Below, piece after piece: positions 904 to 21,333 of a stretch of DNA of 21,333 nt. Each line of letters begins with the position of its first letter. Position 1 is the first letter of the stretch. Below the pieces are notes generated by a model. The model did not search any database. It was not told the DNA's origin and saw only the letters and a program-made list of their open reading frames with translations. The stretch is from Promethearchaeota archaeon (GTDB lineage: Archaea; Asgardarchaeota; Lokiarchaeia; Sigyniarchaeales; SOKP01): assembly GCA_004524535.1 (NCBI GenBank), contig SDNY01000059.1, positions 1 through 21,333 of the forward strand. Reading direction: 5' to 3'. The translations under genes and the position numbers were made by a program.

Positions 904-1459
904 AAGCGAAGAAAAGAAAGATATTTTACAAGATTTAAGAATTGAGGATAAAATCGAGAAACGGTATGAGAATCAAGCCTTAATTAAAGCGGCACGGCTG
1001 CTCGGCGTCGAAGAAATATTAGTCGATTTCACAATCTCGGGAAAACATGGAAATATCAAAAATAAGATCGCCAGAAATTACCACGCAAAAAATCGGTTCC
1101 TTATCATCGTCCTATTCGGAAAACATCCAGATACACAAATCGCCAAACTAAGGGAATCATATTGCGGGAGCAGCACAGACCCCGATGTGAGCAAGCAGTA
1201 CGAGCACATTGAAATCATGTCGGCAGCGGAATTCCGGGATTATATCGGCATAAATCTGTACAGCACGGATGCGGCAAAGCACTGGGCAGCGGAATATAAC
1301 CGGGTTCAGACATTATGCGGGCCTAATGGCGTGTACAGCACTGATGCCAAGACCAGAAAGGATGCTCGGGACGAATTAATCCGACGCTCGGCACAGTCCA
1401 GAAAGAGGCTAATGACCACGCAGACGACCTTGCTAAGATATCTCGGGAAGGCAGATTAG
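887..1459 (+). CDS. Hypothetical protein, probably the 5'-truncated C-terminal part of a larger foreign gene (weak nuclease/toxin-like alpha/beta pattern)
   Basis: 190-aa ORF whose TTG start lies inside the host-derived repeat with no clear RBS; its stop overlaps the stop of the convergent ORF at 1456-1459. Confidence 0.45.
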   Translation: MWDLILSEEKKDILQDLRIEDKIEKRYENQALIKAARLLGVEEILVDFTISGKHGNIKNKIARNYHAKNRFLIIVLFGKHPDTQIAKLRESYCGSSTDPDVSKQYEHIEIMSAAEFRDYIGINLYSTDAAKHWAAEYNRVQTLCGPNGVYSTDAKTRKDARDELIRRSAQSRKRLMTTQTTLLRYLGKAD

Positions 1460-2655: not shown

Positions 2656-2816
2656 GTTTAAGTTTAAGAGTAGGTGAAATTTATGATTTATTCCTTTTCC
2701 TTACGTGTTATATAGAAATTCACAAATTTAAATATTTATATTTAGGCAAGAAAGGTAGACATTTAAAAAACCATTTGCTATAGTTATATAGGGGCGATCC
2801 CTGAATTAGGGAATAA

Positions 2817-2860
2817 CTTGATTCTTCTCGTCAAAATTATGATTTGTGGGATCTAATTCT
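2817..2860 (+). repeat. 44-bp direct repeat, right copy
   Basis: Identical to 860-903; contains the minus-strand stop (2853-2855) of the histidine kinase. Confidence 0.97.
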
Positions 2861-3911
2861 GATTTGCTTTTTGTAGTAAAATAATAAAATTACTCCCGTT
2901 TGAATAATCTCCTTTGATCCTATCTTCAATCCATATCTTCCCGTCAAAAATATCAATAATTTTTTTTACTAGCGACAATCCGAATCCATTTCTTCTATTT
3001 TTCCTTTCGTGTGAATAGTTTTGTTGAAAAATGACTACTTTTCTCTTATCTTCTATTCCTATTCCATTATCGATAAATTGCATCTTTACATAATTTTTCC
3101 CATCAACAAATACTTCTGAGATTTTAATTTTTATTTCGATTGGACTTCTCTTGTTATGTTTTATTGCGTTTAACAAAATATTGTCAAAAACATTTTCAAG
3201 AAGATCATTAGCCAAAACTAATAAATTATTTCCATCCTCTTCAATATTAATTATTACTTCTTTTCCTTGTATGGCTTTTTTAATTATCTCAATTGATTTA
3301 TTTAGTAACTTAGAAACTTCAATTCCTATAAGAGTAGGCTTTAAGTTCTCTAATTCTGAAAATGTATGAATATTTGAAATCAATACACCTCCTCTTAAAC
3401 AAAATTCATTTATAATATTTATATATTGATTTAAATTATCTAAATTTCTAACATTTTTTTTTTCTAAAGAGTAGAGTTCTGCAGATGATTTTATACATTG
3501 AAGAATATTGCTCATATCATGCAGGAATAAATCTTTATATAACGCTATTCTATTATATGCGCTTTTTAATTCATCTACCATTGATATTTGCTCACTTAAA
3601 AAGGCAATAACGACTCCAATAAGAATTAAAATGATTGCTCTTATTAAATTCTCAAATAAAAAAGAATAATTGCCTGCTAAAAAAGGTATAATTATCAGGA
3701 ATCCTGCTAAGAACAACGAAACCAAGATACCTTTATATTTCCACCAAATACAAGCTAAAATTAGAGGTAGATAAAAAAAATGTGAAAATATAATATTGAT
3801 TTTAAGGATTATATTGAAATAATATGTTAAAAAACATGAAATACATAATAAAAAAACAATTATTGTAATCTTTTTTATTACTTCTCCATTCTTGATCTTC
3901 AATACAATCAT
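2853..3911 (-). CDS. Membrane-bound sensor histidine kinase (N-terminal ~4 TM, HisKA, HATPase_c)
   Basis: H-box LFLHDMSNILQ, N-box VFDNILLNAIKH, G1 FIDNGIGI, G2 GFGLSLV. Confidence 0.92.
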   Translation of the reverse strand: MIVLKIKNGEVIKKITIIVFLLCISCFLTYYFNIILKINIIFSHFFYLPLILACIWWKYKGILVSLFLAGFLIIIPFLAGNYSFLFENLIRAIILILIGVVIAFLSEQISMVDELKSAYNRIALYKDLFLHDMSNILQCIKSSAELYSLEKKNVRNLDNLNQYINIINEFCLRGGVLISNIHTFSELENLKPTLIGIEVSKLLNKSIEIIKKAIQGKEVIINIEEDGNNLLVLANDLLENVFDNILLNAIKHNKRSPIEIKIKISEVFVDGKNYVKMQFIDNGIGIEDKRKVVIFQQNYSHERKNRRNGFGLSLVKKIIDIFDGKIWIEDRIKGDYSNGSNFIILLQKANQN

Positions 3912-4125
3912 ATTTGTATTATTGATAAAAGAAAGTATACTTTAGTGCTTAAATAGAAGGCATCCAAATTAATTTATTTGTCTATTATGTGTAATATAGA
4001 ATTATATTAATTTAAACTTTGAATCTCTTACTAAATATGATCATCCTAATTATCATAAAGAATAATAATAGTAGAAATAATGTCGAAAAAGAAAAAAAAG
4101 AAAAAATAAATACAATATTAATGCT

Positions 4126-5574
4126 TTATGGGATGGAATCAATGAATTCATTATAGAGTACGTGCATAAAATTATTCTGCAAAAAAAGATCCTCAAGTTC
4201 CTTTAATTCATCTGATTTGATCTTATTAATCATTTCCTTAAATTGAATTTTAAATTTCTTCATCTCATCTTTGAAAACTTGGTAAGGACTATATGGTCGA
4301 AAGCCCCCATTAACTTCAGCAATCCAATTACGCTGTTTTAGTTTATTGAGTATACTGCGAACTTTTACTTCATTTATATTCATTACCCTACCCAAAATAG
4401 ATAAATCAGTATATCCTAAGGATATTAATACTGAATATGTTTTTAATTCGATTTCCGATATATTAAAAAATCGCATAGCTGATATAACTTTATTATCCAT
4501 TCTCATTACATTTGACTTTTTCTTTAATGACGCTTGTTCTATTTTTGTAATATCAATCTTATTGGAAAACTCAATTTTTTTTGAAGTAACAACGTCATCA
4601 AACAACTTTTTACCAGCATCACTACGGATAATTACACTATTCCACTTTTCTGAAGGAGCACCAACACTTCCAACTGAAATATCAGCAAATTCCGCCGTAT
4701 AATCCTTGCAATATTGACAGCTAGGCCACTGATACGATTTTACGTCTTTTAAAGGAATTTCTCTTATTTTCCCATTTCTTAATAAAACGATAAGTTTTCC
4801 CTGAATAATGTCAAATTTTTGTATCTCACCTAATTTCAAACCTAGATTATTCTTGAGATATTTCTTAATTAAATCATAGCTATAATTGGATGTACAGAAA
4901 AGACCTAGAATCATTTTAAATTTTCCTAATTTGTTTGAAAGTGGGGGATCTATTTGGAGTTTTCTTACTGCTTGAATTTGACAAGGCATTCCAACAAATG
5001 CAAGCCTCTCAAGTTTATATTTATGAATCGCATCACCATAAGGAAGTAATGTAGGTGCTATTGTATACTTTGAACCCGATGAAGCTATTATTTGTTCTGC
5101 CGTTCTCGCAACGACCGGGATGGGACGCCAATCTTCATCTTTATCAATTAATAAGACACCATCAACATATCCTGTATTTAAAGCATGTATAAGTAATGTA
5201 GTAATGATACCCCCATTTTGCGCCTTTTTAAGAATCAATTCATCGGAGCTTCTTGCTACAATAGCTCTTTGATAACAGCCTAAGATAAAATCTTTCTTTT
5301 GGTTACTAAATACTTTTTTTTCAAATAATTCTTCGGGAAAGAATGTTCTTGCGCAATATTTTGAACATAAGGAGCAATCCGTATCCCTTTCTAAAAGAGC
5401 AGGCTTATTTTTTAAGATACCAATTCGAGGACATAGTGCGATGCATGTTCCGCAAAAAACACAATTATCATTATTTATCACCAAATCGCATAGTTCTTGA
5501 AATCCAAAACCACCCTCATAATCTTCTAAATAATTAATTATTTTATTTTTTATAGTCATTTTTTCATACCTCAT
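4126..5574 (-). CDS. Ferredoxin + FrhB/FdhB-family (F420-binding) protein with C-terminal TrmB-like winged HTH
   Basis: CVFCGTCIALCP and CSLCSKYC; FrhB motifs AQNGGIITTLL, SGSKYT, VGMPCQ, LGLFC, CQYCKDYTAEFADISVGSVG; C-terminal FNISEIELKTYSVL...VRSILNKLKQRNWI resembles a TrmB HTH. Alternative start at ATG 5559. Confidence 0.85.
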   Translation of the reverse strand: MRYEKMTIKNKIINYLEDYEGGFGFQELCDLVINNDNCVFCGTCIALCPRIGILKNKPALLERDTDCSLCSKYCARTFFPEELFEKKVFSNQKKDFILGCYQRAIVARSSDELILKKAQNGGIITTLLIHALNTGYVDGVLLIDKDEDWRPIPVVARTAEQIIASSGSKYTIAPTLLPYGDAIHKYKLERLAFVGMPCQIQAVRKLQIDPPLSNKLGKFKMILGLFCTSNYSYDLIKKYLKNNLGLKLGEIQKFDIIQGKLIVLLRNGKIREIPLKDVKSYQWPSCQYCKDYTAEFADISVGSVGAPSEKWNSVIIRSDAGKKLFDDVVTSKKIEFSNKIDITKIEQASLKKKSNVMRMDNKVISAMRFFNISEIELKTYSVLISLGYTDLSILGRVMNINEVKVRSILNKLKQRNWIAEVNGGFRPYSPYQVFKDEMKKFKIQFKEMINKIKSDELKELEDLFLQNNFMHVLYNEFIDSIP

Positions 5575-5794: not shown

Positions 5795-7243
5795 ATGATT
5801 GAATTAAGTGATTTTCATGATTTTAGAGGTATAATTCCAAAAAAAATAGATGTATCAATTCAACAAGCTCTAAATGATTTTCAATTTAGATCTCTCACTA
5901 AGGCAAAAGAAACTATCTTAAAAAATGGAAAATATGATGAGAATTCACTTAAATTTATCATAGATTCTATACTTAAGGAAGCTGTAATTCGAAAATATAT
6001 TTTGCAAGAATTAAAAGGGAAAAAACCGATTACATTAAAAAAAGCCACAGAAATTTTAGGAATTCCCTCTAATAGAGTTATTTATGAAATCTTAAATCTA
6101 AAGGATAAGGGTTTTATCGAAGAAGTAGATGAAAAAAGGGTTCAAGGAGGAACTGCTAAGCTATACAAAGTTATAGATGATACAGAAAAAATCTGGGAAA
6201 ATTATTTTAAACCTGTTGAAATATTTGCTAACCAAGGTTCTTGTAACAGATGTGGATTATGTTCCTCAATTTGTCCTGTAGATGCAATAAAATTTACAGA
6301 GGATTATTTATATATAGATGAGAGCAAATGCATTACATGCGGCCTCTGTTATAGTTTTTGTCCAAATTCTTTTAGATTGGATCCATTGTATAATAGTTCC
6401 AAAAAATCTGATCGTTATTTAAAACACTCAAAGAATTTCGGGTATTATTATAAAATATCTTCAGGTAAAACTCAAATAAGTGAATTAATGGATAAAGGAC
6501 AAGATGGAGGCGTTGTTACTTCATTACTTTATTATTTACTAGATAAAAAGTTAGTAGATGCAGTAGTTACTGTAAAACATTCAAGAAATTATTGGAAACC
6601 CAAGATATCTATTGTAAAAAATAAAAATTATTTAACTAATGCTTCAGGCACTATATATGCTCATGTACCTATTTTATCCATTCTAAATAAAGTGAAACAA
6701 TTTAATAAAGTAGCAATTGTTGCTCTCCCTTGCCAGATTAGAGCTATAACAAGAGGAATAGAATCGCCGATAAAACTACCGATTTTTAGTAATATAAAGT
6801 ATAAAATTGGGTTGTTCTGTATGAAATCGTTTACTTATGAGAGGATCCTAACTCTTATACAAGAAAAATTTAATATCACTTTAGATGAAATAACAAAAAT
6901 GGATATAAAAAAAGGCAGATTTATCCTCCATCTTATAAATGGAAACACTATTTCTACATCTTTAAAAAATTGCAGCGAATACACTTCAAATTATTGTCAA
7001 CAATGTTATGATGCAACATCAGAATTAGCAGATATTTCAGTAGGGGCGATTGGGTCGAAAGTAGGCTGGTCCACAGTGATAATGAGAACCAAGAAGGGAC
7101 AAGATCTTTTTATTGGCGCTGTTAAAGATAGATTAATCAAGACAAATAACCTTATGGACATAACTAATTGTCAATCTTTAGTAGATAAAATCGCAATGAA
7201 AAAAAAAGAAAATTATATACAAATCGAATTGGGGATAAAATAG
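5795..7243 (+). CDS. N-terminal helical/winged-HTH + 2x[4Fe-4S] ferredoxin + FrhB/FdhB-family protein
   Basis: KYILQELKGKKPITLKKATEILGIPSNRVIYEILNLKDKGFI (wHTH); CNRCGLCSSICP, CITCGLCYSFCP; GQDGGVVTSLL, LPCQ, IGLFC, ELADISVGAIGS..GWSTVIMR. Confidence 0.85.
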   Translation: MIELSDFHDFRGIIPKKIDVSIQQALNDFQFRSLTKAKETILKNGKYDENSLKFIIDSILKEAVIRKYILQELKGKKPITLKKATEILGIPSNRVIYEILNLKDKGFIEEVDEKRVQGGTAKLYKVIDDTEKIWENYFKPVEIFANQGSCNRCGLCSSICPVDAIKFTEDYLYIDESKCITCGLCYSFCPNSFRLDPLYNSSKKSDRYLKHSKNFGYYYKISSGKTQISELMDKGQDGGVVTSLLYYLLDKKLVDAVVTVKHSRNYWKPKISIVKNKNYLTNASGTIYAHVPILSILNKVKQFNKVAIVALPCQIRAITRGIESPIKLPIFSNIKYKIGLFCMKSFTYERILTLIQEKFNITLDEITKMDIKKGRFILHLINGNTISTSLKNCSEYTSNYCQQCYDATSELADISVGAIGSKVGWSTVIMRTKKGQDLFIGAVKDRLIKTNNLMDITNCQSLVDKIAMKKKENYIQIELGIK

Positions 7244-7876: not shown

Positions 7877-8509
7877 TTGGAGATTCTTGAATTAAAACCT
7901 CTAAGAAATAAAAAAGTAAAATTATATTTAATAAGAAGTGAGGATAAGGATTTTACTAATGAAGATTATAGAAATCTCCGGGAAATATTAGAAAATGAAT
8001 TGTTTAGGTTTGCTGTTATTGATTTAAACAGAAAGAACTTAAAAGAAATTTATGAGGAACCACTTTTTAGATTTTTGGAAAAATTTAAAATACCTTATTA
8101 TAGTGTTGATATCCCTGAAAACGTTAAAGACTATTTATATGTTGAAATTCTTGAAAAAGAGGTTCAAATTAATGATTTAGAAAAAGAATATTCTCTCTTA
8201 TGTGTTGATCCAGAAAATCAAAATTCGTTTAAAGCTCAGAATTTAAAATCCTGGATTGAATTATTGAAAAAAGAAGTAGAAAATAAGAAAAAATATTTAA
8301 AATTAACCGTTAAACCTCAGTGGATTGTTAAACAAGTTCTGGATATTGCTAATAGGATTAATAATAACGAATTTTCAATTATGCATTTCACTTATGGAGA
8401 GCTTTATTCAGAATTAAAGAAATTATTTAAGGAGTATAATATCAAGGTCATTAAAATTGACATTGAAAAAAAAAACATTAAAAATATATTAATAGAAAAT
8501 AGGAGGTAA
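7877..8509 (+). CDS. Uncharacterised 'LELKP' family protein (degenerate TraB/GumN-like alpha/beta domain with coiled-coil insert)
   Basis: TTG start; MEILELKPLRNKK and VDIPENVKDYLY motifs shared with the proteins at 8516, 20755 and 21047. Confidence 0.75.
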   Translation: MEILELKPLRNKKVKLYLIRSEDKDFTNEDYRNLREILENELFRFAVIDLNRKNLKEIYEEPLFRFLEKFKIPYYSVDIPENVKDYLYVEILEKEVQINDLEKEYSLLCVDPENQNSFKAQNLKSWIELLKKEVENKKKYLKLTVKPQWIVKQVLDIANRINNNEFSIMHFTYGELYSELKKLFKEYNIKVIKIDIEKKNIKNILIENRR

Positions 8510-8515
8510 AATAAA

Positions 8516-10180
8516 ATGCAAGTACTAGAATTAAAACCTTTAAAAAATAAAAAACTCAAACTGATAATTGTTGAGAGCGAATTTCCCATTGATTGGTCAT
8601 TAGAAGCATCAGAGAATAATGAAATTCTTGGAAATTTATTTTTCATATCAAAAGAATATCTGAATTTCCTTGAAAATCTTATAAAGAAATATAAGCCTGA
8701 TTTTGCCATAGAAGACAAGGGACTTCGAATAGGAGAAGAGAAAATGAGTGATGATGATATATTTTTAAGATTATTTAGAAGTTCTGGAATTCCATATGAG
8801 TTAGTCGATATTCCAGATTATGCATTAAATTATATCACATCACCCATATACAATAAGAAAGCATTATTAAAAAAATTTTCAGAAGAAATTGAAGAATACA
8901 AAAAAAGAGGTCAAATTCATTATAATGATACTCATTTTCAGCAATTAGCTCAATGGCATCTATATTTAATGGATGATGTGAAAGAACAAGAGGATGAAAT
9001 TAGATATAAAATTCGAGAATCATGGATGATGATGGGGATATTAGAATTAGCCAAGAAACAAAATAAAAAGGAATTGACCGCCTTATTTATTTGTGACAAA
9101 AATCATTTTGATGGGATCATCTTTTTGGCTAAAGAATTAGAAATAGAATATGAGTTAATTAATATTAAAAAGGTTGCTAAAGGATTAGACAAAGCAAGCT
9201 CAGTTAAGGATATATTAGAATCCTCAGTCTTAGAAATTATGCCAATAAAAGTTAAAAAGAAGGAGAAAAAAGAGAAATTATTATATTTTTTTGATACAGA
9301 TGATTATTGTTCTCCATTTGATACTAATATGGGATATGATGCTGGATTTGATGCCGTTGTACCTTATTGCAGAATGACAGCAGATATGGTACCAAAATTA
9401 GTTCAAGATGCGATGTTTTCTAGGAAGGTAGGAGCACCTACAGTGTATTTCGTTGGAGGATCAAACGTAGAAGAAAGTGAAAAGATTGCGGAAGCAGTAT
9501 TAAAATCACTCGTTCCACCATTTGAATCTCCTGTAATTATTGATCCACGCGGGGCTCATACAACAGCATCTGCAATAGTAGCCAAGACAATCGAAGTTGC
9601 AAGGATACATGGTATTCAAGATTTATCTGGTAAAAAAATTGTTTGTTTAGGTGGTACTGGACCGGTTGGACAAATAGCTGCATTAATAGCTGCTAAGCTC
9701 CATGCAAATGTGGTGATAACTTCAAGGAGGGAAGATTTCGTTAAAAAATTAGCAGAAAGCTTAACAGAAAAAGCGGGTTCCGCAGCATCAAAAATAGAAG
9801 GAGTTTTGGCAGATTCTGAGGATGATTTTTATAAAATTGTGAAGGATGCTGATGTAATTTGGTCTGTGGGCAAAGCTGGGATACAAATGTTATCAAAAGA
9901 AGTAATGAATAAGCTTCGACCAAATAAGATTGCTGTAGATATTAATTTGGTCCCCCCTTATGGTATTGAAGGATTAGAACCAAACTTTAATGATAAAGAA
10001 TTCTATCCTGGAATATTTGGTTTAGGGGCTCTTGACATTGGTCGTTTGAAATATAAAATTGAGAGTATTATATTCAATGAGGCAGCTAATACAAAAGGGA
10101 AAAAATTATTCGATTATAACATTGCATTTGAAATTGCTTTTAAGATCTTAATAGGGGAAGAAATCAAAATTTCGATATAA
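8516..10180 (+). CDS. mtdB: Fusion of an N-terminal LELKP/TraB-like domain and an NAD(P)-dependent methylene-H4MPT/H4F dehydrogenase (MtdB/MtdA family)
   Basis: RBS aggaggt; C-terminal ~300 aa contain SPFDTNMGYDAG, VQDAMFSR, DPRGAHTTA, GGTGPVG and DINLVPPYGIEG, characteristic of MtdB-type enzymes. Confidence 0.85.
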   Translation: MQVLELKPLKNKKLKLIIVESEFPIDWSLEASENNEILGNLFFISKEYLNFLENLIKKYKPDFAIEDKGLRIGEEKMSDDDIFLRLFRSSGIPYELVDIPDYALNYITSPIYNKKALLKKFSEEIEEYKKRGQIHYNDTHFQQLAQWHLYLMDDVKEQEDEIRYKIRESWMMMGILELAKKQNKKELTALFICDKNHFDGIIFLAKELEIEYELINIKKVAKGLDKASSVKDILESSVLEIMPIKVKKKEKKEKLLYFFDTDDYCSPFDTNMGYDAGFDAVVPYCRMTADMVPKLVQDAMFSRKVGAPTVYFVGGSNVEESEKIAEAVLKSLVPPFESPVIIDPRGAHTTASAIVAKTIEVARIHGIQDLSGKKIVCLGGTGPVGQIAALIAAKLHANVVITSRREDFVKKLAESLTEKAGSAASKIEGVLADSEDDFYKIVKDADVIWSVGKAGIQMLSKEVMNKLRPNKIAVDINLVPPYGIEGLEPNFNDKEFYPGIFGLGALDIGRLKYKIESIIFNEAANTKGKKLFDYNIAFEIAFKILIGEEIKISI

Positions 10181-11132: not shown

Positions 11133-13901
11133 ATGGAATTTCAAACACCTTTAGTTAAAGTTTTAATTGAAAATGAAGATAAAATCTTAAGCTCTAAGAA
11201 ATTTTCAAAGCAAGAATTTGAAATTTTTATTAAAGATTTAACTGTAGCAGAGAATCAAAGATACTTAATTTTAGAGAAAATAAGAGAAAAGGGAGATTAT
11301 GATTTAGATGTTTTACAAAAAACTCTAAATGTTTCCAAAAGAGAACTTATCTTAAATATTGAATTTCTAAAAGAACTTGGACTTCTTAAATTTATTAATA
11401 TGGAATCAGCCTTTTATGAAAATCTAGAAAATAAAAATGACATAAAAGGTTTATTTCCAAATATCTCTGAAATACAAGAGAAAAAAATATGTTCGGGATG
11501 TGGTCTATGTGTCTCAGTATGTCCTGTCAATGCAATCAAATTTAAAGATGATATTTTAACCATAGATCTCGATTTATGTATAAATTGTGGATTATGTTAT
11601 GCTTGTTGTCATAGAACTTTTTTTCCTAAAGAATTAGAAATAAATGAAGCTTGTAATGAAATAGATGCAAAATTTCAAGAAGAATTCAATGGGTTTAAAG
11701 AAATTCATACCGCACAGACGAGGGATTCTGAGATTAAAAGAGTTGCTCAAGACGGAGGGATAGTCACATCATTATTAAAAGCAGCTTTTAATGAGAAAGT
11801 GATAAAAAATGCTTTAGTTGTTGGAGAATTTAAAGATGGATTTTCACTAAAACCCTTGCCTCTATTGGTTAAAAATGAGGTTGAATTATTAAGGAGTAGC
11901 GGAACAAAATATAGCAATGCTCATATTTTACAGTTATTACATGAGGCTAGAGGAGTTGAGGATTTAGCAATTGTAGGGACTCCTTGTACTATGCAAGCGC
12001 TCAAAAAAATCTCTTTTTACCCATTAAATAAACCTTATTATAATAACATTAAGTTAAAAATAGGTTTATTTTGTATGGAATCATTTGATTATCAGAAAAT
12101 AATTGAGATTTTGAAAGAAGAATTCAATAAAATTCCAGAAGAAATAAAAAAAATGGATATCAATAACGGACATTTTTTTGTTTATGACAAAAATTACAAA
12201 TCTTACAGTATTCCCATTAAAAATATTAAAAAGTACGGTAGATATGGATGCTTTTTATGTAGCGATTTAACTACCGAACATTGTGATATTTCAGTTGGAT
12301 CAATTGGTTCTAATCCTGGTTGGTCAACTATGATTATAAGAACTGAAATAGGGCAAAATTTATTTCAGAAATCAACCAGTAGAAATTTGATTTTTACAAA
12401 AAAAATCAAAGAAGATGAGAAGAATTTCAGCCTATTAAGTAGAATTGCTTTATCCAAAATTAAACGATACAAAGAAATTCCACGGCAAAAAATGATTGAA
12501 CAAGATCCTAATATAAGAATCCAGAATTTTGAAGAAGTCCCTCAAGGTTTAACGGAAAAGATGGTCATTCTTGAAACTCAAAGGTGTTTACAATGTGGTA
12601 ATCCATTATGCATACAAGGTTGTCCCGTAAATGTTGATATTCCTCAGTTCATTAAATTATTAAGATCGAAAAAATATAAAGAAGCTTCAATGTTTATTAA
12701 ACAATATAATTTATTGCCAGCGATATGTGGAAGAGTGTGCCCTCAAGAAACTCAATGTGAAGGAGTATGTTTATTGGGAAATGTGGATAAACCTGTTGCG
12801 ATTGGTTACTTAGAAAGATTTATAGCAGATTGGGAACGAAAAAGTGAGATGAAAGAATGCCCTGAATGTCAAGCCCCTAAAAACATAAAAGTAGCAATTA
12901 TCGGCTCAGGACCAGCTGGTTTAACGTGTGCTGGAGAATTAACGAGGATCGGATATGATGTAACGGTTTTTGAAGCATTGCATACAGGTGGTGGTGTGTT
13001 AGTTTATGGTATTCCTGAATTTCGTTTACCAAAGATCATAGTTGAAGAGGAAATTGAATCTCTGAAAGACTTAGGAGTCAAAGTTAAATATAATATGATA
13101 ATTGGCAAAATTTTATCTATTGAAGATCTTAAAGAGAAGGGATATAAAGCTATTTTTATTGGCGTTGGAGCAGGATTACCAGTTTTTCTAAATATACCAG
13201 GATTAAGATTAAATGGGGTTACAAGTGCTAATGAATTTCTTACAAGAGCTAATTTAATGAAGGCATATAAATTTCCAGAATATGATACACCAATTAGAGT
13301 TGGAAAAATAGTAACTGTTATAGGAGGAGGAAATGTTGCCATGGATTCAGCTCGAGTTGCTCTAAGATTAGGAGCCAAGAAAGTAATAATTGTATATAGA
13401 AGATCTGAACAAGAAATGCCAGCAAGGAGGGAGGAATATCATCATGGAAAAGAAGAGGGTCTTGAATTCCAATTTTTGACAAATCCAATAGAATTCCTTG
13501 GTGATCAAGATGAGAATGTTAAACAAATGGTGTGCCAAAAAATGGAATTAGGAGACCCTGATGATTCAGGTAGAAGGAGCCCTATTCCAATAAAAGGTTC
13601 AGAATTTATAATTGATACCGATATGATTATTATCGCTATTGGAACTAGAGCTAATCCTATTTGTCCTAAATCTATTCCAAATTTAAATCTTAACAAATGG
13701 GGTTATATTGAAACAAATGATAAATGTCAGACAAATTTAGAAGAAATATTTGCTGGTGGAGATATTGTTACTGGAAGTGCTACTGTAATTTCTGCTATGG
13801 GTGCCGGAAAACGGGCAGCTGAAGGGATTCATGAATATTTAACAAAAAAATATAAGATTTCCGTTGATCATTTAGAGAAAATAGTTGATTTAACGCATTA
13901 A
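11133..13901 (+). CDS. nfnB: Fusion: wHTH + ferredoxin + FrhB-family domain + NfnB/SudA (GltD-like) large subunit
   Basis: N-terminal half: CSGCGLCVSVCP, AQDGGIVTSLL, SGTKYS, VGTPC, IGLFC, DISVGSIGS. From ~12480: RCLQCGNPLCIQGCPV, CGRVCPQETQCE, IGSGPAG, GGGNVAMD, YRRS, AGGDIVTGSATV. Starts 1 nt after the nfnA stop. Confidence 0.9.
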   Translation: MEFQTPLVKVLIENEDKILSSKKFSKQEFEIFIKDLTVAENQRYLILEKIREKGDYDLDVLQKTLNVSKRELILNIEFLKELGLLKFINMESAFYENLENKNDIKGLFPNISEIQEKKICSGCGLCVSVCPVNAIKFKDDILTIDLDLCINCGLCYACCHRTFFPKELEINEACNEIDAKFQEEFNGFKEIHTAQTRDSEIKRVAQDGGIVTSLLKAAFNEKVIKNALVVGEFKDGFSLKPLPLLVKNEVELLRSSGTKYSNAHILQLLHEARGVEDLAIVGTPCTMQALKKISFYPLNKPYYNNIKLKIGLFCMESFDYQKIIEILKEEFNKIPEEIKKMDINNGHFFVYDKNYKSYSIPIKNIKKYGRYGCFLCSDLTTEHCDISVGSIGSNPGWSTMIIRTEIGQNLFQKSTSRNLIFTKKIKEDEKNFSLLSRIALSKIKRYKEIPRQKMIEQDPNIRIQNFEEVPQGLTEKMVILETQRCLQCGNPLCIQGCPVNVDIPQFIKLLRSKKYKEASMFIKQYNLLPAICGRVCPQETQCEGVCLLGNVDKPVAIGYLERFIADWERKSEMKECPECQAPKNIKVAIIGSGPAGLTCAGELTRIGYDVTVFEALHTGGGVLVYGIPEFRLPKIIVEEEIESLKDLGVKVKYNMIIGKILSIEDLKEKGYKAIFIGVGAGLPVFLNIPGLRLNGVTSANEFLTRANLMKAYKFPEYDTPIRVGKIVTVIGGGNVAMDSARVALRLGAKKVIIVYRRSEQEMPARREEYHHGKEEGLEFQFLTNPIEFLGDQDENVKQMVCQKMELGDPDDSGRRSPIPIKGSEFIIDTDMIIIAIGTRANPICPKSIPNLNLNKWGYIETNDKCQTNLEEIFAGGDIVTGSATVISAMGAGKRAAEGIHEYLTKKYKISVDHLEKIVDLTH

Positions 13902-14920
13902 ACTCGCTTATCTAATTCTATTTTTTTACAAATCAATATCTTATTATTTTCTATAATATTAAGTAAATAATCATTAATTCCTGGAATGATAGGTGAGATA
14001 AATAATATTTCCTCTTCAGGAAACCACAACTCAATTTTTTCATTAAAAACTTCTTTTTCAAAAAAATCCTTAACAAAGGTAATTTTTACTCTTAAATCTC
14101 TAATCGATTTGGAAAAGATATTTTTTAGAGTTATTTCCATTTCTTGATTGCCTTGGTTTAATTCAATATTTGATATTTCAAATGGCGCCTTTAATTGAAA
14201 TGTTTCATTATTACTTTTAGTGGAATCAAAAAATCTTATATTCAAAGAGTCTTGTTCTTTTTTATGATTGAAAATGTTAGATATCTTTATACCTTTTAAC
14301 ATTAAATATGAAAGAGCTTTTTGTAATTTAATTGATGTTGCATCATATTGTTCTATGATGGATTCAAAAAACTCTTTACATGCAGAATCTATCATGTTTA
14401 TCATCTTTTTTTTCATTAACTCTCCTTTATTGATGGTTTCAAGAATAGGGGGTGTTTTAATTATTTCAAACCTAAATAATTCAGACTCAATGATATTATA
14501 TAAAGTATTTTGGAAATTCTTTATAACTATATCTGAAATTTTATTAAGAAGTGCTCTACCAAAGATATCAATATCGGTCGGTATTCTTACAATTAATATT
14601 ATTGTTTCGGGAGTTTCTTCCATCAATCCGGCTCTTTTTTTTTTCCTTTTTGATTTCACAAGAAATTTTTGAGCAAAATACATATTTCCTTCATATTCTA
14701 AATCAACTCGATTAAAATCCTCATGATCCTTAATCTCTAAAAACCAGATTGGGTGGATCTTAATTAAACGTAATTTTTCACCATCATTTCTTATAGATTC
14801 ATCTGGATAAAATAAAAGAGGTACCGCTCCTTGCATCTCATCAAAATATAACATATAAATTTCATAAAATACTGAGAAATTCTTCTCTGTCTTCTTTTCT
14901 TCAACAAAAAATTCATTCAT
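13898..14920 (-). CDS. Hypothetical protein with N-terminal uDENN/longin-like (NPRL2-like) domain and C-terminal Ig-like beta domain
   Basis: IYMLYFDEMQGAVPLLFYP matches the hhh-FD-x3-G-x-hhh-YP start of uDENN/longin domains; the last ~95 aa show an alternating beta-strand pattern (MEITLKN...LRVKITF). Confidence 0.6.
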   Translation of the reverse strand: MNEFFVEEKKTEKNFSVFYEIYMLYFDEMQGAVPLLFYPDESIRNDGEKLRLIKIHPIWFLEIKDHEDFNRVDLEYEGNMYFAQKFLVKSKRKKKRAGLMEETPETIILIVRIPTDIDIFGRALLNKISDIVIKNFQNTLYNIIESELFRFEIIKTPPILETINKGELMKKKMINMIDSACKEFFESIIEQYDATSIKLQKALSYLMLKGIKISNIFNHKKEQDSLNIRFFDSTKSNNETFQLKAPFEISNIELNQGNQEMEITLKNIFSKSIRDLRVKITFVKDFFEKEVFNEKIELWFPEEEILFISPIIPGINDYLLNIIENNKILICKKIELDKRV

Positions 14921-14980
14921 TTTAATAAAACTTTTATTTTATTTGTAATTTGATTTTTAATATTGAATTTTAGGATGATT

Positions 14981-16291
14981 TCAATGAGTAGCACATGATA
15001 TACATGGGTCAAAAGCTCTAATTATTAACTGAATTTCTTTCTTTATCGTATCAATATCAGTTTTTTCATATAATTTTTGAGCATAGTTCGTTATCATATG
15101 GTTTATGAGAGGAATATTAATCTCTGTGGCAATAAATAGTTTAATTTGATCGATTGAATTTTCTTTATTGAGATGATAATGATGCAAAAGAATCCCTCTG
15201 GGGGCCTCAACTACCCCTATCCCATCCATATTTTTTATATTTGTTAACGATAAAAGGCTCTCATTTTTATTTACTAAAGGGTCATTCAGAAGTTCCAAGG
15301 CTTTAAATGTCTCAACATACATTTCTAATAAGCGAATAAAATTCGTAAATAATATATTTTTATACCAAGTTTTATCAAAAACGCTTAAAAAATTAGAAAC
15401 TTCTTCTATATCATAACTTTCTACAATATGATTGCGTGCTAAGGGACCTACTAAAATATTATTACCAATAGAAAAATCAATCCCATTTAAATCAATATCT
15501 TTATTAAAATAGTTAGTATAGTTTTTTTCTATAAAGTTTGTAATTTTTTTATTATCTTCCTTAAATCCAAGAATACCAGAATATCTATCAAAGATTCCAT
15601 GATTATGCATTCCTAAAAAGATAGGATTAGGAATCATAAACTCCTCAGGGGGTATTTTTTTAGAGAATAGTTCAATGAATCTTTCTATGACTACCTCCAA
15701 ATTCATTAATACTTTTTGAAAATATTTTCTTGCTAATGTTATATTTTTTTTTGATGGATTGTAAATAACTCCTCCTGGAATTACTGTTATTGGATGAACA
15801 GATCTACCCCCAAATATTTTATCAATTTCATTTCCTATTTTTATTAATTCAAAGAATATTGTTGTTAATTGGGGATAATTTTTTATAATAGCATATGGTG
15901 ATAGTATTTTTTGATGAATATTAAAAATCCTTAATAAATCTGGAAATGCTTGAAAAAAGAAATGGAGGCTATGAGATTTGATTAATTCGCCTGTCATTAA
16001 TAATTTCCGCACTAATATTGATTGTTCAGAAGGTTCAATTCCATAAATATTCTCAATTGTTTTGCAACTAGCGATTGATTGCGAAGCGTGACATAAACCA
16101 CATATTCGTGAAATAATTTTAGGAAGATCACATAATTTTTTATGTTTCAATATGTGTTCAAACCCTCGATAAGCTTCTATTTCAAATGTAGCTTGTGTTA
16201 TCTCTTCATTTTTATTATCAAGATATATTTTCACTTTACCATGACCTTCAACTCTCGTACAAACATCAACGATTTTTAACAAATTCCTCAC
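14981..16291 (-). CDS. mvhA: Group 3 (MvhA-like) [NiFe]-hydrogenase large subunit with atypical, sensor-like motifs
   Basis: TRVEGHG, L1 RICGLC, GGRSVHP, EAPRG, L2 DPCISCATH*. The GTG start overlaps the mvhG TGA stop (GTGA). Confidence 0.88.
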   Translation of the reverse strand: MRNLLKIVDVCTRVEGHGKVKIYLDNKNEEITQATFEIEAYRGFEHILKHKKLCDLPKIISRICGLCHASQSIASCKTIENIYGIEPSEQSILVRKLLMTGELIKSHSLHFFFQAFPDLLRIFNIHQKILSPYAIIKNYPQLTTIFFELIKIGNEIDKIFGGRSVHPITVIPGGVIYNPSKKNITLARKYFQKVLMNLEVVIERFIELFSKKIPPEEFMIPNPIFLGMHNHGIFDRYSGILGFKEDNKKITNFIEKNYTNYFNKDIDLNGIDFSIGNNILVGPLARNHIVESYDIEEVSNFLSVFDKTWYKNILFTNFIRLLEMYVETFKALELLNDPLVNKNESLLSLTNIKNMDGIGVVEAPRGILLHHYHLNKENSIDQIKLFIATEINIPLINHMITNYAQKLYEKTDIDTIKKEIQLIIRAFDPCISCATH

Positions 16292-17052
16292 CTTTTAAAC
16301 GTTGGTTTTGAAAATCGATAAAAAATACCATCATAATTTCTTATCTTTTTTGAAAGATGAATTAAACTGATAAAATTAATTGTATTGGAAAAAAAGCTTT
16401 TTGAAACAGGCCCCATACATCCTTCACAAGGAAGACCTTCTTTAATACATACATGTTCACATCCATCTCGAGTGATAGGTCCCAGACATAAAATTCCTCT
16501 TTTTAAAAAACACTCAGTATCTTCTTCGACAGGTATTATTTCCTCTGGATTGGGATTAATTTGAGTAATTTTTGTTTGAAAATTTTCCTCAGCCTCTCCT
16601 CTTAATGGACATGTTGCACATAAATTCTTTTTTGGAATATCAACATCAATTTCTCTATTCTCAATTAATTTTATTAGACAATTACCTAACAATTTTGAGG
16701 GCGGCGGGCATCCAGGAATGACACCATCTATTTCAATATATTTAGAAACGGGTTCTGCTATCCTTTTTTTCGAAAGACTTAAAATACCTCCGAAGCCCGC
16801 ACAAGTCCCTATGGAATAAACCTTTTTAGTTTGTTTCCTTATTTTTTTAAGTAAATTAACTTGTGAGTCTTCAGAAACACATCCTTCTATAAGTGCGATA
16901 TCACATTCTTCAATTTCTTCTACATCCATTATAAAAGGAAAGTAAATTATTTTTGTCCTTTCAAGGAACTGAGGGAATATATCTAAAGATAATAGGGTAG
17001 AAATACATCCACTACACCCTGTTAATGATGAAATTAATATTTTAGGCTTCAA
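16288..17052 (-). CDS. mvhG: Group 3 [NiFe]-hydrogenase small subunit (MvhG-like)
   Basis: GCSGC, EGCV, GTCAGFGG, PGCPP, CATCP, CFLKRGILCLGPITRDGC...CEGCMGP; TTG start with ggagga RBS overlapping the upstream stop; no Tat signal. Confidence 0.88.
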   Translation of the reverse strand: MKPKILISSLTGCSGCISTLLSLDIFPQFLERTKIIYFPFIMDVEEIEECDIALIEGCVSEDSQVNLLKKIRKQTKKVYSIGTCAGFGGILSLSKKRIAEPVSKYIEIDGVIPGCPPPSKLLGNCLIKLIENREIDVDIPKKNLCATCPLRGEAEENFQTKITQINPNPEEIIPVEEDTECFLKRGILCLGPITRDGCEHVCIKEGLPCEGCMGPVSKSFFSNTINFISLIHLSKKIRNYDGIFYRFSKPTFKR

Positions 17053-19591
17053 ATTTAATCTCCTCCGATAATTGATTATAAAAAGTTTTCACCATCTCAG
17101 CAAATTTTATACCTTCTACAGCATTCATATTTTCAATTATAATGCGTTTCTTATATTTGGGATTTAAAACATCTTTCAATAATTCAATTTTACGTTGAAT
17201 TTTTTCAATGCCGTCAATATATCTACATGAGTTTCTCCTACAACCAATTATCATAACTCCATCAAATCCATGTTCAAATGAATTAATTATGAAGCTTGTG
17301 TCAATGCGCCCTGTACAAGGAACTTGAACTATGAAGATGTTTGGATTATAGGAGATCTTTTTTAATCCTGCATCATCTGCAGCTGCGTAACCACACGAAC
17401 GACAGCAGAATGCTATAATTTTTGGCCGTTTTTTAAATTTTGAGAGTATTTCAATCGTTCTATTAATCTTTTCTGTGGTATCTATGTTCATTTCTATCGC
17501 ATTAGTCGGACACACACTTACACAGGTACCGCATCCCTTACATTTAAACATGTCGATGCTTAATTTATCTGATTCTATGGTTATAGCATTATATGGACAT
17601 GATTTCGAGCATAATCCACATATTCCACATAATTCCTCATTGATTTCAATTCCACTAAACTCTGATATTAAAGAATCCTTAGATAAAAGTGCTATTATTT
17701 TTAATGCAACATTATTAGCTGTAGAAATCGTAGAATTATAATCCAAAGGTCCGAAAATTGTCCCTACTCCATATATTCCAGAGGCTATTGTTTCTTCGCT
17801 CATAAAACCGTTATCATCAAGAGTGAAATCCATAGTTTTTCGCAAGATTTTCAAATCTTTATTCGGCACCATCATGACATTCAAGACTATTAAATCACTC
17901 GGATATTCTTTAGAGTTAGCAACAATTATATTTTTATTGTTTCTTTCAATAATTTTCAAGTCATTTACATAATGAAACTTTTTATCCATATGAGTTGATA
18001 ACGAATTATGATTTTCCTTAAGTTTGTTTAAATCATAAAAAACATTTACCTCACAATTAGGAATATGTTGTTTTATTGATTCTAGATATTTTAATGCTAA
18101 AATATCATTATACTCTAATCGATTATATATAGGACCTACGCATTGGATAATTGAAACAGATTCAGGAGGCACTTTACTTGAGATTTTCAAGATATCTCCA
18201 TTTGTAAAACCATCAGAAGAAAGCATTCTTTCGAATTCGGGAGATGTAATAATATCATTTTTTGGATTATAATGATATTCTTCTAAATCTGAATAAAGAT
18301 CAGACCCAATTGCGATTACTTTTGTACCAACTTTGATTCTAATTTTTTCTAATTTCTGATCTAAGTCAATCGCTTTATTAATACAGGCGCGTTCACAAAT
18401 TCTACAATTGATACAATTTTTTATGTCCTCCTCATCAATTATAGGAGCAAATGGATAAGAATGAATAAATGGAATATAAATTATTTTTCTATTTGTTAGT
18501 TCAAATTCATATTGATTAGGTTTTTCTATACTACATACTTCAATGCATTGTTTACAACCTGTACACTTTTTTTCATCAACAAAACGAGGTTTTTTAATTA
18601 AATCAATCGTAAAATTCCCAACCTCTCCAGATACGTTCTCAATTTCCGTATTAGTTAAAATTTTTATATTTTTTTCGTTAACCAATTCAGCAATTAATTC
18701 AGAAATAAAACAAATTGAACAATCTCCTATATTTGAAATTCGATCCCATCTAGCAACCTTCCCCCCTAATGTCGGTGATTTTTCAATAAGATATACTTTA
18801 ATTCCAGCTTTAGCCAAATTTAGTGCAAGAGTCATACCTCCTATACCCCCTCCTATAATTGCACAACTTTTTTCAATCTCAACTCTCTTTGCTTTCACTT
18901 TTTTTTGCATTATTACTCTTTCTATAGCCGCTTCTATTAACAACTTAGCTTTTTCTAATATGAGCAGGGGATCGAATTCTCTACCATTTGAATGATGTAC
19001 CCATGCACATTGTTCTCGTATATTCGCAATCTCAATATTGGCATGCTCTATAACCTTTTCAAATATCCTCTCAAATAGATGTTGATGTGTTTTCGGTGAA
19101 CATGCCGCTATAACTATTTTATTAATGAAATTTTCTTTAACCCAATTTGTAATTTTGCTAAAATTCTTTTGTTGGCATAAATTCTCAAAAATTTTTACGG
19201 AAACAACATTCCGAAGCTTATTGATATAATTTTCTAACGCATTTACATTGATAATATTTGAAATTTCAGTATTACAATTACATATGATTACCCCTACTCG
19301 ACTTATAGTACTTCCTTTTGCACCTAAATATTCATCAACGTTTTCTCCTGATAAAATTCTTTTATTAATATTAAGAATTTGTAATATTTTTTTACCATCT
19401 TCCGTAATAAAATATGATTTTTTATCTTTATTTATAAGAGAACCGAGTTTTTTTAAATGAAAATTTAATTGACCTGTTGTCTCTAAATTTAATCGCTCCA
19501 TTAAATCCGTATAAGGGATATATCCTTCTTTTTCTAAAATAAGTAAAATTTTTCGCCTAAATGGATGAGATAATATAGAATAAATATCCAA
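17042..19591 (-). CDS. hdrA: Fusion: ArsR-like winged HTH + divergent HdrA + MvhD
   Basis: LSHPFRRKILLIL...TGQLNFHLKKL...YFITEDGKK (wHTH); AACSPKTH, NIREQCAWVH, GGGIGG, EFERML and two ferredoxin pairs (HdrA); IIAFCCRSCGYAAAD, VPCTGRID, GCRRNSCRY (MvhD). Confidence 0.9.
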   Translation of the reverse strand: MDIYSILSHPFRRKILLILEKEGYIPYTDLMERLNLETTGQLNFHLKKLGSLINKDKKSYFITEDGKKILQILNINKRILSGENVDEYLGAKGSTISRVGVIICNCNTEISNIINVNALENYINKLRNVVSVKIFENLCQQKNFSKITNWVKENFINKIVIAACSPKTHQHLFERIFEKVIEHANIEIANIREQCAWVHHSNGREFDPLLILEKAKLLIEAAIERVIMQKKVKAKRVEIEKSCAIIGGGIGGMTLALNLAKAGIKVYLIEKSPTLGGKVARWDRISNIGDCSICFISELIAELVNEKNIKILTNTEIENVSGEVGNFTIDLIKKPRFVDEKKCTGCKQCIEVCSIEKPNQYEFELTNRKIIYIPFIHSYPFAPIIDEEDIKNCINCRICERACINKAIDLDQKLEKIRIKVGTKVIAIGSDLYSDLEEYHYNPKNDIITSPEFERMLSSDGFTNGDILKISSKVPPESVSIIQCVGPIYNRLEYNDILALKYLESIKQHIPNCEVNVFYDLNKLKENHNSLSTHMDKKFHYVNDLKIIERNNKNIIVANSKEYPSDLIVLNVMMVPNKDLKILRKTMDFTLDDNGFMSEETIASGIYGVGTIFGPLDYNSTISTANNVALKIIALLSKDSLISEFSGIEINEELCGICGLCSKSCPYNAITIESDKLSIDMFKCKGCGTCVSVCPTNAIEMNIDTTEKINRTIEILSKFKKRPKIIAFCCRSCGYAAADDAGLKKISYNPNIFIVQVPCTGRIDTSFIINSFEHGFDGVMIIGCRRNSCRYIDGIEKIQRKIELLKDVLNPKYKKRIIIENMNAVEGIKFAEMVKTFYNQLSEEIKFEA

Positions 19592-19690: not shown

Positions 19691-19720
19691 ATGACAAAAA
19701 TAGTTGTCAAAATATATAAA
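19691..19720 (-). promoter_or_regulatory. Minus-strand TATA box with an operator immediately downstream (hdrA-mvh operon)
   Basis: ATGACAA-aaatag-TTGTCAA at 19691-19710; 19711-19720 reads TTTATATATT on the minus strand. Confidence 0.6.
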
Positions 19721-20037: not shown

Positions 20038-20463
20038 TTGCTTATTGATGTGATTGACCTAAAAATACTTGAAGAATTGAAACAAGATAGTAGAGTAAGT
20101 TTCAATGAAATCTCTCAAAAAGTTGGAAAAACTGAAGCAACTGTTCGTCGTCGCGTAAAAAAATTAATTGATGAAGGAATAATTAAAAGGTTTACAATTG
20201 AATATTCTATTGATTCAAAGCCAAAAACTCGTGCAACTGTTAAAATCGAGCCTGATTTTAAGGAAATTAAAAGGATACTAAATAGTTTAGCGCAAATTCA
20301 AGAGATCACGGATATTTGGAGGCTTTCAGGAGAATGTGGATTGCTATTGAAAGTAGAAATTGATTCCATTGAGCTCTTTAATCCGTTGATTGAAGAGAAA
20401 ATTAGTACCGTTAATGGTATTAGAATAGTAGAAACATGTTTTATAACAGATATAATTAAGTAA
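20038..20463 (+). CDS. Lrp/AsnC family transcriptional regulator
   Basis: DVIDLKILEELKQDSRVSFNEISQKVGKTEATVRRRVKKLIDEGIIKRFT HTH plus C-terminal RAM domain. Confidence 0.93.
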   Translation: MLIDVIDLKILEELKQDSRVSFNEISQKVGKTEATVRRRVKKLIDEGIIKRFTIEYSIDSKPKTRATVKIEPDFKEIKRILNSLAQIQEITDIWRLSGECGLLLKVEIDSIELFNPLIEEKISTVNGIRIVETCFITDIIK

Positions 20464-20635
20464 TATATTTTTTTTGAAATTTAATTGATTTAACCTTATT
20501 TTTTTCTTTTTTTTTAAAAATAAGATTTTGATAAAAATATTTTTCAAACTTTTGTAATCAAAAATTTACTATTATGTAAAATCACTTAATTTGCTAATAA
20601 GATTCTTGATTTGTAATTTAATTAAGATTGTAAAT

Positions 20636-20655
20636 TTGACAAAACAAATTGTCAA
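20636..20655. promoter_or_regulatory. Perfect palindromic operator TTGACAA-N6-TTGTCAA
   Basis: ttgacaa aacaaa ttgtcaa, upstream of TTTATAT (~20684) and the second LELKP gene pair. Confidence 0.7.
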
Positions 20656-20754
20656 TAACCTAGAAATTTCTCTTATCAAATTCTTTATATTTTGGGGATT
20701 TCACTTTATTCTTGGAATAGTAATATGATAAAAAAAGAAAGAGGTGGTTTAAAA

Positions 20755-20988
20755 ATGGAAATTTTAGAAGTTAAACTTACTCCAGTTGAAGATATAAAAA
20801 AAACCCAGGATAATGAATTCTTAAAAGAACTAGCAGAGGGATATCTTGAAGTAGAGATTTCCAAAAAGAAGGCGTTACTAAAAGAATATTCAAAAGCTTA
20901 TGATAATTTACAAGATAAAGATTCCTTTAATGGACAGTACCTAGAGACATTGATATCCATATTAAGAGATGAGCTAAAGGATAATTAA
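20755..20988 (+). CDS. 77-aa miniature LELKP-family protein (N-terminal peptide + helical hairpin only)
   Basis: ATG at 20755 after RBS gaggtgg; MEILEVK; AEGYLEVEISKKKALLKEY...DSFNGQYL aligns with VKDYLYVEILEKE...NSFKAQNL (7877) and NKKALLKKF (8516). Confidence 0.75.
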   Translation: MEILEVKLTPVEDIKKTQDNEFLKELAEGYLEVEISKKKALLKEYSKAYDNLQDKDSFNGQYLETLISILRDELKDN

Positions 20989-21046
20989 CCATTTTTTTCC
21001 TTAATTATAAATATAATATTAATTTCTGAAGGAGGTGTATAATAAA

Positions 21047-21333
21047 ATGGAAGTTTTGGAATTAAAACCAATAAAAAATAAAAATATGACAGTTTATTTA
21101 ATTGAAAAACCAAAAAATTCAATTAATTCACAGAATTTAAGATGTCTCATCGATTTTTTACTCACTAAAGAAATTAAATTTATCTCTATAGATTTAGAGG
21201 ATAGAGATTTGAACAATGGAAAAAATGCATCAATAGAAAAATTACTTGAAGAAATTAAAGTTCCATGTCATCGCGTTGATATTCCTGAATACGCAAAGGG
21301 ATATCTTTATGAAGAGATATCCCAAAAGGAGGA
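21047..21333 (+). CDS. LELKP-family protein (partial, runs off the window; not in the ORF track)
   Basis: RBS ggaggtg at 21031; MEVLELKPIKNKNMTVYLIE...FISIDLE...KVPCHRVDIPEYAKGYLYEEISQKE, open to the window end. Confidence 0.85.
   Translation, partial: MEVLELKPIKNKNMTVYLIEKPKNSINSQNLRCLIDFLLTKEIKFISIDLEDRDLNNGKNASIEKLLEEIKVPCHRVDIPEYAKGYLYEEISQKE

Follow-up and report, generated by a model that had tools for sequence, protein, structure and literature searches.

The window analysed here, a stretch of 21,333 nucleotides from a Promethearchaeota archaeon, encodes a [NiFe]-hydrogenase whose small and large subunit genes lie directly downstream of a gene fusing a winged helix to HdrA and MvhD. 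The favoured reading, to which a probability of about 55 % is given, is that these three proteins constitute a one-component H2/redox-sensing repressor. An earlier note on this DNA had singled out the large subunit, on account of a Gln in its L1 motif and a stop immediately after its terminal motif, as a sensory hydrogenase convergent with the group 2b enzymes. That observation marks a conserved Asgard clade. The regulatory reading gains support from the winged-helix–HdrA–MvhD partner and from a palindrome in the promoter, evidence absent from the note. The features of the hydrogenase operon are as follows.

14981..16291, minus strand: [NiFe]-hydrogenase large subunit, group 3 scaffold (motif reading, AlphaFold model, fold match)
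14981..14983, minus strand: TGA stop directly after the terminal His (bridged by an independent contig)
16076..16108, minus strand: L1 motif RICGLCHASQS, with Gln at Cys+4
16288..17052, minus strand: MvhG-like small subunit, 254 aa (profile matches, Cys alignment)
17042..19591, minus strand: winged helix, HdrA and MvhD fusion, 849 aa (profile matches, alignments)
19337..19591, minus strand: N-terminal winged helix-turn-helix of the fusion, residues about 1–85 (Pfam DUF7347, 40.1 bits against a cut-off of 27.6)

Large subunit gene

In the large subunit, Gln71 lies four residues past Cys67 in L1 (minus strand, 16108–16076), and the reading frame ends in DPCISCATH followed by TGA at 14983–14981. 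Both features were correctly described in the earlier note. Among the matches listed, Gln at Cys+4 and the absence of an extension are shared by 118 of the 120 closest homologs; in the other two the L1 motif could not be parsed, one ending at the His and the other in CATY. Family f1 large subunits, read from the loci and the window, have Gln and no tail in 50 of 51 cases, the 51st having been called without its N-terminus. At the level of contigs rather than raw reads, the stop is bridged by a contig from another study's run (X2, record 9, 14948–15137) with 0 differing letters. Among the sequencing runs listed as holding this DNA, none was of RNA. A sequencing error at the stop was ruled out, since homologs terminate at the same His, and a selenocysteine-recoded TGA was ruled out because all four active-site Cys precede the stop and homologs end at that His.

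The ORF caller placed the start at GTG 16291, giving 436 aa. An alternative start, TTG at 16282, follows a GGTGAGG element; the resulting 433-aa protein is as long as the nearest homolog (P0001), and from the sequence this start is the likelier. In the numbering of the longer form, the protein retains Glu15, Cys64/Cys67, Arg365, Thr389, Asp428, Cys430/Cys433 and His436, with Gln71 replacing His. The AlphaFold model of the large subunit (pTM 0.89) has MvhA (5odc_F) as its best fold match, with a TM score of 0.84. A complex prediction for the large subunit, small subunit and MvhD domain scored 0.00 and is evidence neither way. HypD and a maturation protease are encoded in the genome. On the same strand, the large subunit gene is followed in 12 of 38 clade loci, all f1, by a gene for a 340-aa protein without a known family (13898–14920 in the window).

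Phylogenetic placement

The closest solved relatives of the large subunit are group 3 enzymes, both by sequence and by fold, and no NCBIfam model reaches its cut-off (the VhuA model scores 171 bits against 800). The nearest homologs carry the names Promethearchaeota, Lokiarchaeota and Loki_b32, which would put the organism with the Lokiarchaeia-type Asgard archaea. In the trees, the large subunits tied to the winged-helix fusion all fall in a single clade within group 3 (SH-aLRT 100; 97/94 in a 31-row tree in which the group 3 node has support of 100/100). This clade stands beside 3b and 3c/3d-like groups, the branching order among group 3 clades not being resolved. The trees were built under LG+G4 and rooted on group 1 and 2 sequences, without methanogen MvhA or FrhA; L046 and L063, which have incomplete N-termini, were omitted. 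Sequence match, fold match and tree agree with the group 3 scaffold proposed in the earlier note, and the distinct clade, apart from group 2b HoxC, is in keeping with its suggestion of a possible new subgroup.

Within this clade, the Gln branch has support of 100/99 in the 31-row tree. Joining it with HoxC in one clade was rejected by the AU test (31 rows, LG+G4; p 3.75e-96), and the Gln is therefore convergent with that of HoxC, as had been proposed. Subgroups 3e–3l are named in the available part of a survey of Asgard large subunits (bioRxiv 10.1101/2024.07.04.601786), which may already include and label the Asgard clade; that part of the text holds no description of the group 3 subgroups and ascribes no sensory or regulatory role to one. 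A literature search on the names 3h–3k returned nothing relevant.

Diagnostic value of the Gln and the missing tail

Of 136 more distant group 3 relatives examined, 112 had both motifs parsed; the 24 outgroup proteins dropped had unparsed motifs, and three of them were short in-clade fragments with Gln. None of the 112 has Gln at Cys+4, five have Tyr, and 15 have His without a tail, although some of these 15 may be truncated gene calls. Two tail-less sets cluster in the 3b-like part of the tree. The tail-less 3b-like groups with His are P0172, P0234, P0241, P0253 and P0264, and P0210, P0215 and P0258; in P0234 and P0241 the N-terminus is longer by about 170 residues. Both His and a tail are present in all 24 canonical Asgard group 3 loci fetched. 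The Gln is thus specific to the Gln branch, whereas the missing tail is not. Outside group 3, groups 4c, 4e and 4g are listed as naturally tail-less, 4c and 4e being catabolic (PMC7294309).

The two traits are also uncoupled inside the clade. Families f19, f31, f21 and f28 have His and a short tail, f4 and f6 have Gln and a tail of 5–11 aa, f5 and f1 have Gln without a tail, and one protein (P0122) has His without a tail. The co-occurrence of Gln and missing extension therefore holds among the closest homologs and breaks down across the families of the clade. In HoxC itself, the Gln apparently plays no part in sensing H2, according to PMC5665086. Together, the two marks are weak evidence of sensing, because of the tail-less relatives, the report on the HoxC Gln and the basal members with His and a tail. 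The contention that these traits by themselves show a sensor was not upheld; the catabolic groups 4c and 4e and the uncoupling within the clade also weigh against it.

Winged-helix fusion and small subunit

The modelled winged helix (pLDDT 88) has ArsR/HxlR/MarR-type regulators as its nearest solved folds, none at E <= 0.001. Its predicted recognition helix, G-x-L-N-F/Y-H-L-K-K, is nearly invariant across the winged helices, whose mean identity to the window copy is 70 %, compared with 56–76 % for the enzyme domains. The HdrA–MvhD part of the fusion scores 587 bits against NCBIfam NF040770, below the cut-off of 1100. The small subunit retains the 12 Cys columns common to canonical small subunits and lacks a loop of roughly 40 residues and a long C-terminal tail.

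In the window, the reading frames of the fusion, small subunit and large subunit overlap, with the fusion gene upstream. In 32 of 38 clade loci the fusion gene immediately precedes those for the small and large subunits, and four more loci are cut by contig ends; in two genomes (G123 and G278) it lies away from the hydrogenase genes. The same order is found in all 11 more distant loci, from families f19 and f31 (eleven more genomes, with a more diverged copy). In a search of 399 Asgard genomes, the large subunit and the winged helix were both present in 104 of the 110 genomes having either, by strict thresholds and genome lists compiled by hand. The system is present in at least 121 of the 399 sampled genomes, and since related copies are not independent, family and locus counts overstate. 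The same type of winged helix was also seen fused directly to a protein comprising an unknown domain and MtdA (658 aa, L127:3002–4975), with no hydrogenase genes in the stretch fetched.

HdrA clusters and the proposed mechanism

In the window fusion, the FAD motif, the HA3, HA5/HA6 and C-terminal cluster Cys and the Lys409 equivalent are all present. Across all 32 aligned sequences, the FAD motif, HA3, the inserted and C-terminal cluster Cys, Cys291/Cys294 and the MvhD Cys are conserved. A four-Cys motif, which we take to be HA4, lies immediately ahead of the Lys409 equivalent. It is complete in f19, f31 and f28; of the 28 f21 and Lokiarchaeia-class sequences examined, none has more than two of its Cys, and the window fusion has one of the four. 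In the Gln branch, the domain that follows it is shortened as well. No hdrB or hdrC was found among the 17 window ORFs scanned. From the accessible parts of the sources, Lys409 sits beside the flavin (PMC13514486) and HA4 carries the high-potential electron to HdrB (PMC13580544, PMC12350162).

On the root used, the inferred order of events is gain of the winged helix and its site, loss of HA4 (node 94/80), gain of Gln (100/99) and finally loss of the tail, the last node being weak (84–85 in two trees, not resolved in the 31-row tree). The Gln and the tail loss are likely to be late refinements, not the cause of sensing.

Two families show other changes. The N-terminal Glu of the large subunit has a role in turnover. 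It is lost in all five f31 large subunits (L112, L113, L118, L119 and L121), in which the EAPRG motif is also altered, while f31 HdrA retains the four-Cys motif; loss of this Glu suggests, as far as the sequences go, weak selection on turnover in f31. In f28 (L062, L064, L065 and L066), Lys stands for the L1 Arg and Val for the final His, and fwdB/fwdD-like genes are nearby.

In the repressor reading, the three proteins would form a complex that represses its own operon and probably also the neighbouring mtdA one-carbon operon. By homology to MvhAGD–HdrA, H2 would be oxidized at the NiFe site, and electrons would pass from the small subunit to the [2Fe-2S] cluster of MvhD and on to FAD. With HA4 missing, the high-potential exit to HdrBC is predicted to be closed, and for that reason the flavin and clusters would report H2 availability, not bifurcating flux. 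The mobile arm of methanogens consists of the HdrA N- and C-terminal domains together with MvhAGD, according to the available text of two papers (PMC13580544, PMC12350162). The winged helix is attached to the HdrA N-terminal domain, which in methanogens is part of this arm, and the state of the arm would set the fit of the two winged helices of an HdrA dimer on the palindrome. Somewhat short of even odds is the fuller proposal of a dedicated archaeal H2 sensor, derived from the electron-bifurcating Mvh–Hdr machine, in which the HdrA arm moves a DNA-binding domain without a kinase. Living lineages would preserve the steps of this conversion, namely the winged helix and operator, HA4 loss, replacement of His by Gln in convergence with HoxC, and tail loss.

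Candidate operator

A palindrome precedes the fusion gene, and further copies lie elsewhere in the window.

19692..19709, no strand: palindrome TGACAA-N6-TTGTCA, candidate operator, about 100 bases upstream of the fusion gene
19713..19720, minus strand: TATA-like TTTATATA, 3 bases upstream of the palindrome (read by eye)
20637..20654, no strand: second exact palindrome, upstream of two small ORFs of a family that elsewhere heads the mtdA operon
20529–20546: one-mismatch copy, upstream of the same two small ORFs
4038–4055: one-mismatch palindrome, upstream of a membrane histidine-kinase-like gene (2853–3911)

The consensus TGAYAA-N6-TTRTCA was read by eye. Within the sample from which it was read, a site with at most one mismatch is present in 18 of 30 upstream regions, where the null mean is 0.42 and other spacers give 0–4; two of the 32 regions were left out, their start being unparsed. 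Two checks were independent of that sample. Such a site, again with at most one mismatch, is found in 9 of 13 f19 and f31 loci; here the null mean is 0.04, and six other spacer lengths give 0. In each of the four loci with frhB inserted before the fusion gene, a pair of exact sites precedes frhB. The f4 and f28 loci, as well as L055 and L063, gave no site within one mismatch. The 24 canonical group 3 control loci, mostly more GC-rich than the family loci, have no intergenic palindrome. The palindrome is a candidate operator for the winged-helix fusion.

Both exact upstream sites of the genome fall in the window. Across the genome, no excess of the palindrome was seen (eight exact sites, compared with six for a spacer of 5), and a genome-wide regulon was sought and not found. 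Genomes without the system also contain the palindrome, at chance level. It is absent from the vhu promoter, and control of the main hydrogenase, the task of HoxBC, is therefore not seen.

The link between palindrome and fusion bears on a different explanation, in which the winged helix serves for protein docking, the hydrogenase is simply a divergent member of group 3, and the palindrome is the site of some other regulator, for example that encoded by the divergent Lrp/AsnC gene at 20038–20463. This is very improbable. An Lrp-like gene occurs in just 4 of the 38 loci, the palindrome tracks the fusion across distant families and the recognition helix hardly varies, although the absence of a significant fold match for the winged helix would be in keeping with docking. 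No Rfam match was found in the window.

The mtdA operon, Vhu and the possibility of a working enzyme

One further operon in the window is a candidate target.

7877..10180, plus strand: unknown 210-aa protein, and a paralogous domain fused to an MtdA-type methylene-tetrahydromethanopterin dehydrogenase

In relatives, the mtdA operon is divergent from, or directly after, the hydrogenase operon; it is linked to the system in 19 of 38 loci and in all 11 of the more distant loci, and palindromes precede such operons. The region upstream of the window mtdA operon contains two-mismatch sites only. A gene for a CDC48-like AAA ATPase follows mtdA on the same strand in L041, L043 and L049.

The genome also encodes a canonical VhuG/VhuA/VhuU enzyme, on contig C51, with His and with a tail on VhuU. 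It is a split selenocysteine-type Vhu (G000:C51:10282–14634), comprising vhuG, vhuA and a short vhuU with an in-frame TGA and a tail, and the genes after vhuU resemble hdrC and hdrB by eye. Within the class, a Vhu-like match, which may be a fragment or in a few cases a non-orthologous hit, was found in 82 of the 102 genomes that have the system and in 49 of the 58 that lack it. Given these similar frequencies, the system does not appear to replace Vhu, and the data fit an add-on. Two of the 20 system-positive genomes with no Vhu-like match are 92 % and 99 % complete. The idea that the system is the only hydrogenase in many genomes was rejected, the drop-out of Vhu being 20/102 with the system and 9/58 without it.

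Two observations count against a sensor, namely that every catalytic residue examined is kept and that the low-potential HA3 and HA5/HA6 clusters are intact, and because of them the complex could carry flux. It could then be a working metabolic hydrogenase–flavoprotein, interconverting H2 with ferredoxin or a partner in the mtdA pathway and also repressing its own genes, so that DNA binding would be real and sensing a side job. This is a less likely account than the repressor reading. In its favour, basal members retain HA4, His and tail, linkage to the mtdA operon persists even in the distant loci, the palindromes are confined to the hydrogenase cluster, and a fifth of the system-positive genomes give no Vhu-like match. 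That last point is offset by the similar drop-out among system-negative genomes. The loss of HA4 and shortening of the next domain in the Gln branch, the lack of hdrB and hdrC among the scanned ORFs and the loss of Glu in f31 also speak against a metabolic role.

The signal itself may be other than H2. The complex might sense the redox state of ferredoxin or nicotinamide through HdrA, with the hydrogenase acting as a reset or vent. The candidate targets (mtdA, frhB-like and hdrA genes) concern redox and one-carbon metabolism, not hydrogenases, the decay of the active site takes different forms in f31 and f28, and two genomes hold the fusion apart from the hydrogenase genes. This remains improbable when set against the retention of hydrogenase genes with the fusion in nearly all genomes that have either, with all four active-site Cys. 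As regards the H2/redox-sensing repressor, winged-helix fusions are not unique to the hydrogenase complex, because other redox proteins in the window carry extra helical or winged-helix domains.

Comparison with known systems

The nearest functional parallel is group 2b HoxBC–HoxJ–HoxA of Cupriavidus necator, which likewise has Gln at L1 Cys+4, lacks a C-terminal extension and, as would be the likely role here, couples H2 to transcription. As read from pHG1, C. necator HoxC has Gln67 at Cys63+4 and no tail, as the note had it, although its motif is RVCGICSVSQS and not the RICGICSxSQS given there. Unlike HoxBC, the Asgard subunit is on an unrelated group 3 branch, as judged by the AU test, and has no site at the main hydrogenase (vhu) promoter. 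There is no conserved histidine kinase or response regulator, and the output would be the winged helix fused to HdrA–MvhD. A kinase-like gene is found in 4 of 38 loci and next to the large subunit in only one (L033); that of the window is 11 kb from the hydrogenase, with HATPase_c the sole domain shown. Leu66 and Gln114 stand at the positions aligned with Ile62 and Phe110, the gas-channel pair of HoxC. On current inference, the system works like a regulatory hydrogenase without being a member of group 2b.

The Asgard proteins resemble group 3c MvhAGD–HdrABC (PDB 5ODC, 8RVU and 9SW2; PMC13580544, PMC12350162) in best fold match, in the MvhG-like small subunit, in MvhD and, within HdrA, in FAD, HA3, HA5/HA6, a Cys202/Cys205-type pair and the Lys409 equivalent. 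They differ in forming a separate clade at about 27 % identity, in the fusion of HdrA and MvhD with a winged helix, upstream of and overlapping the hydrogenase genes, in the loss of the HA4 motif, in having no hdrBC in the window, and in the Gln and missing tail. The system lacks defining features of bifurcating group 3c. HdrA2-type HdrA–MvhD fusions (NF040770; PMC11237513) also have HdrA with a C-terminal MvhD; unlike the Asgard fusion, no DNA-binding domain on HdrA is described for them in the portion of that source available.

The winged-helix fold and conserved recognition helix are like those of ArsR-like transcription factors, with fold matches that are weak by E-value. PutA is an enzyme–repressor fusion in which a DNA-binding domain on a flavin-related enzyme controls nearby genes; unlike PutA, the Asgard fusion would take its input from a [NiFe] hydrogenase through an Fe–S wire.

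H2 exchange is central to models of Asgard metabolism and of the origin of eukaryotes. If the reading is true, a sensor carried by at least 121 of the 399 Asgard genomes sampled would reveal how these cells keep track of H2, and surveys that count this clade as catabolic 3c would overstate the capacity for H2 flux. The independent gain of a HoxC-type Gln is a natural experiment on the role of that residue. A 95-residue domain and an 18-base site are enough for a direct test of the reading. HydDB, in the part available, lists NiFe H2 sensors in group 2 only (PMC5037454). Literature searches, which left most subscription papers outside their coverage, turned up no archaeal hydrogenase with a direct connection to a DNA-binding protein, and no published description of hydrogenase-to-winged-helix wiring.

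Other genes of the window

Three FrhB-like flavoproteins with extra domains are encoded in the window (4126–5574, 5795–7243 and 11133–13901). One has at its C-terminus a TrmB-type winged helix (25.7 bits in Pfam, where the cut-off is 25.6), and a second has an N-terminal extension of about 140 aa. The third is a fusion of an N-terminal domain, FrhB and NfnB behind nfnA, and may connect F420 with an Nfn-type enzyme. An archaeal family that has no name and no Pfam match is represented at 7877–8509, 8516–9265, 20692–20988 and 21035–21333; the family, for which there is a weak TraB/GumN-like fold lead, travels with the hydrogenase operon, and one copy is that fused to MtdA. The region from about 1000 to 3000 has a GC content of 41–44 %, compared with about 30 % overall, contains a 399-aa ORF without a Pfam match and is possibly foreign.
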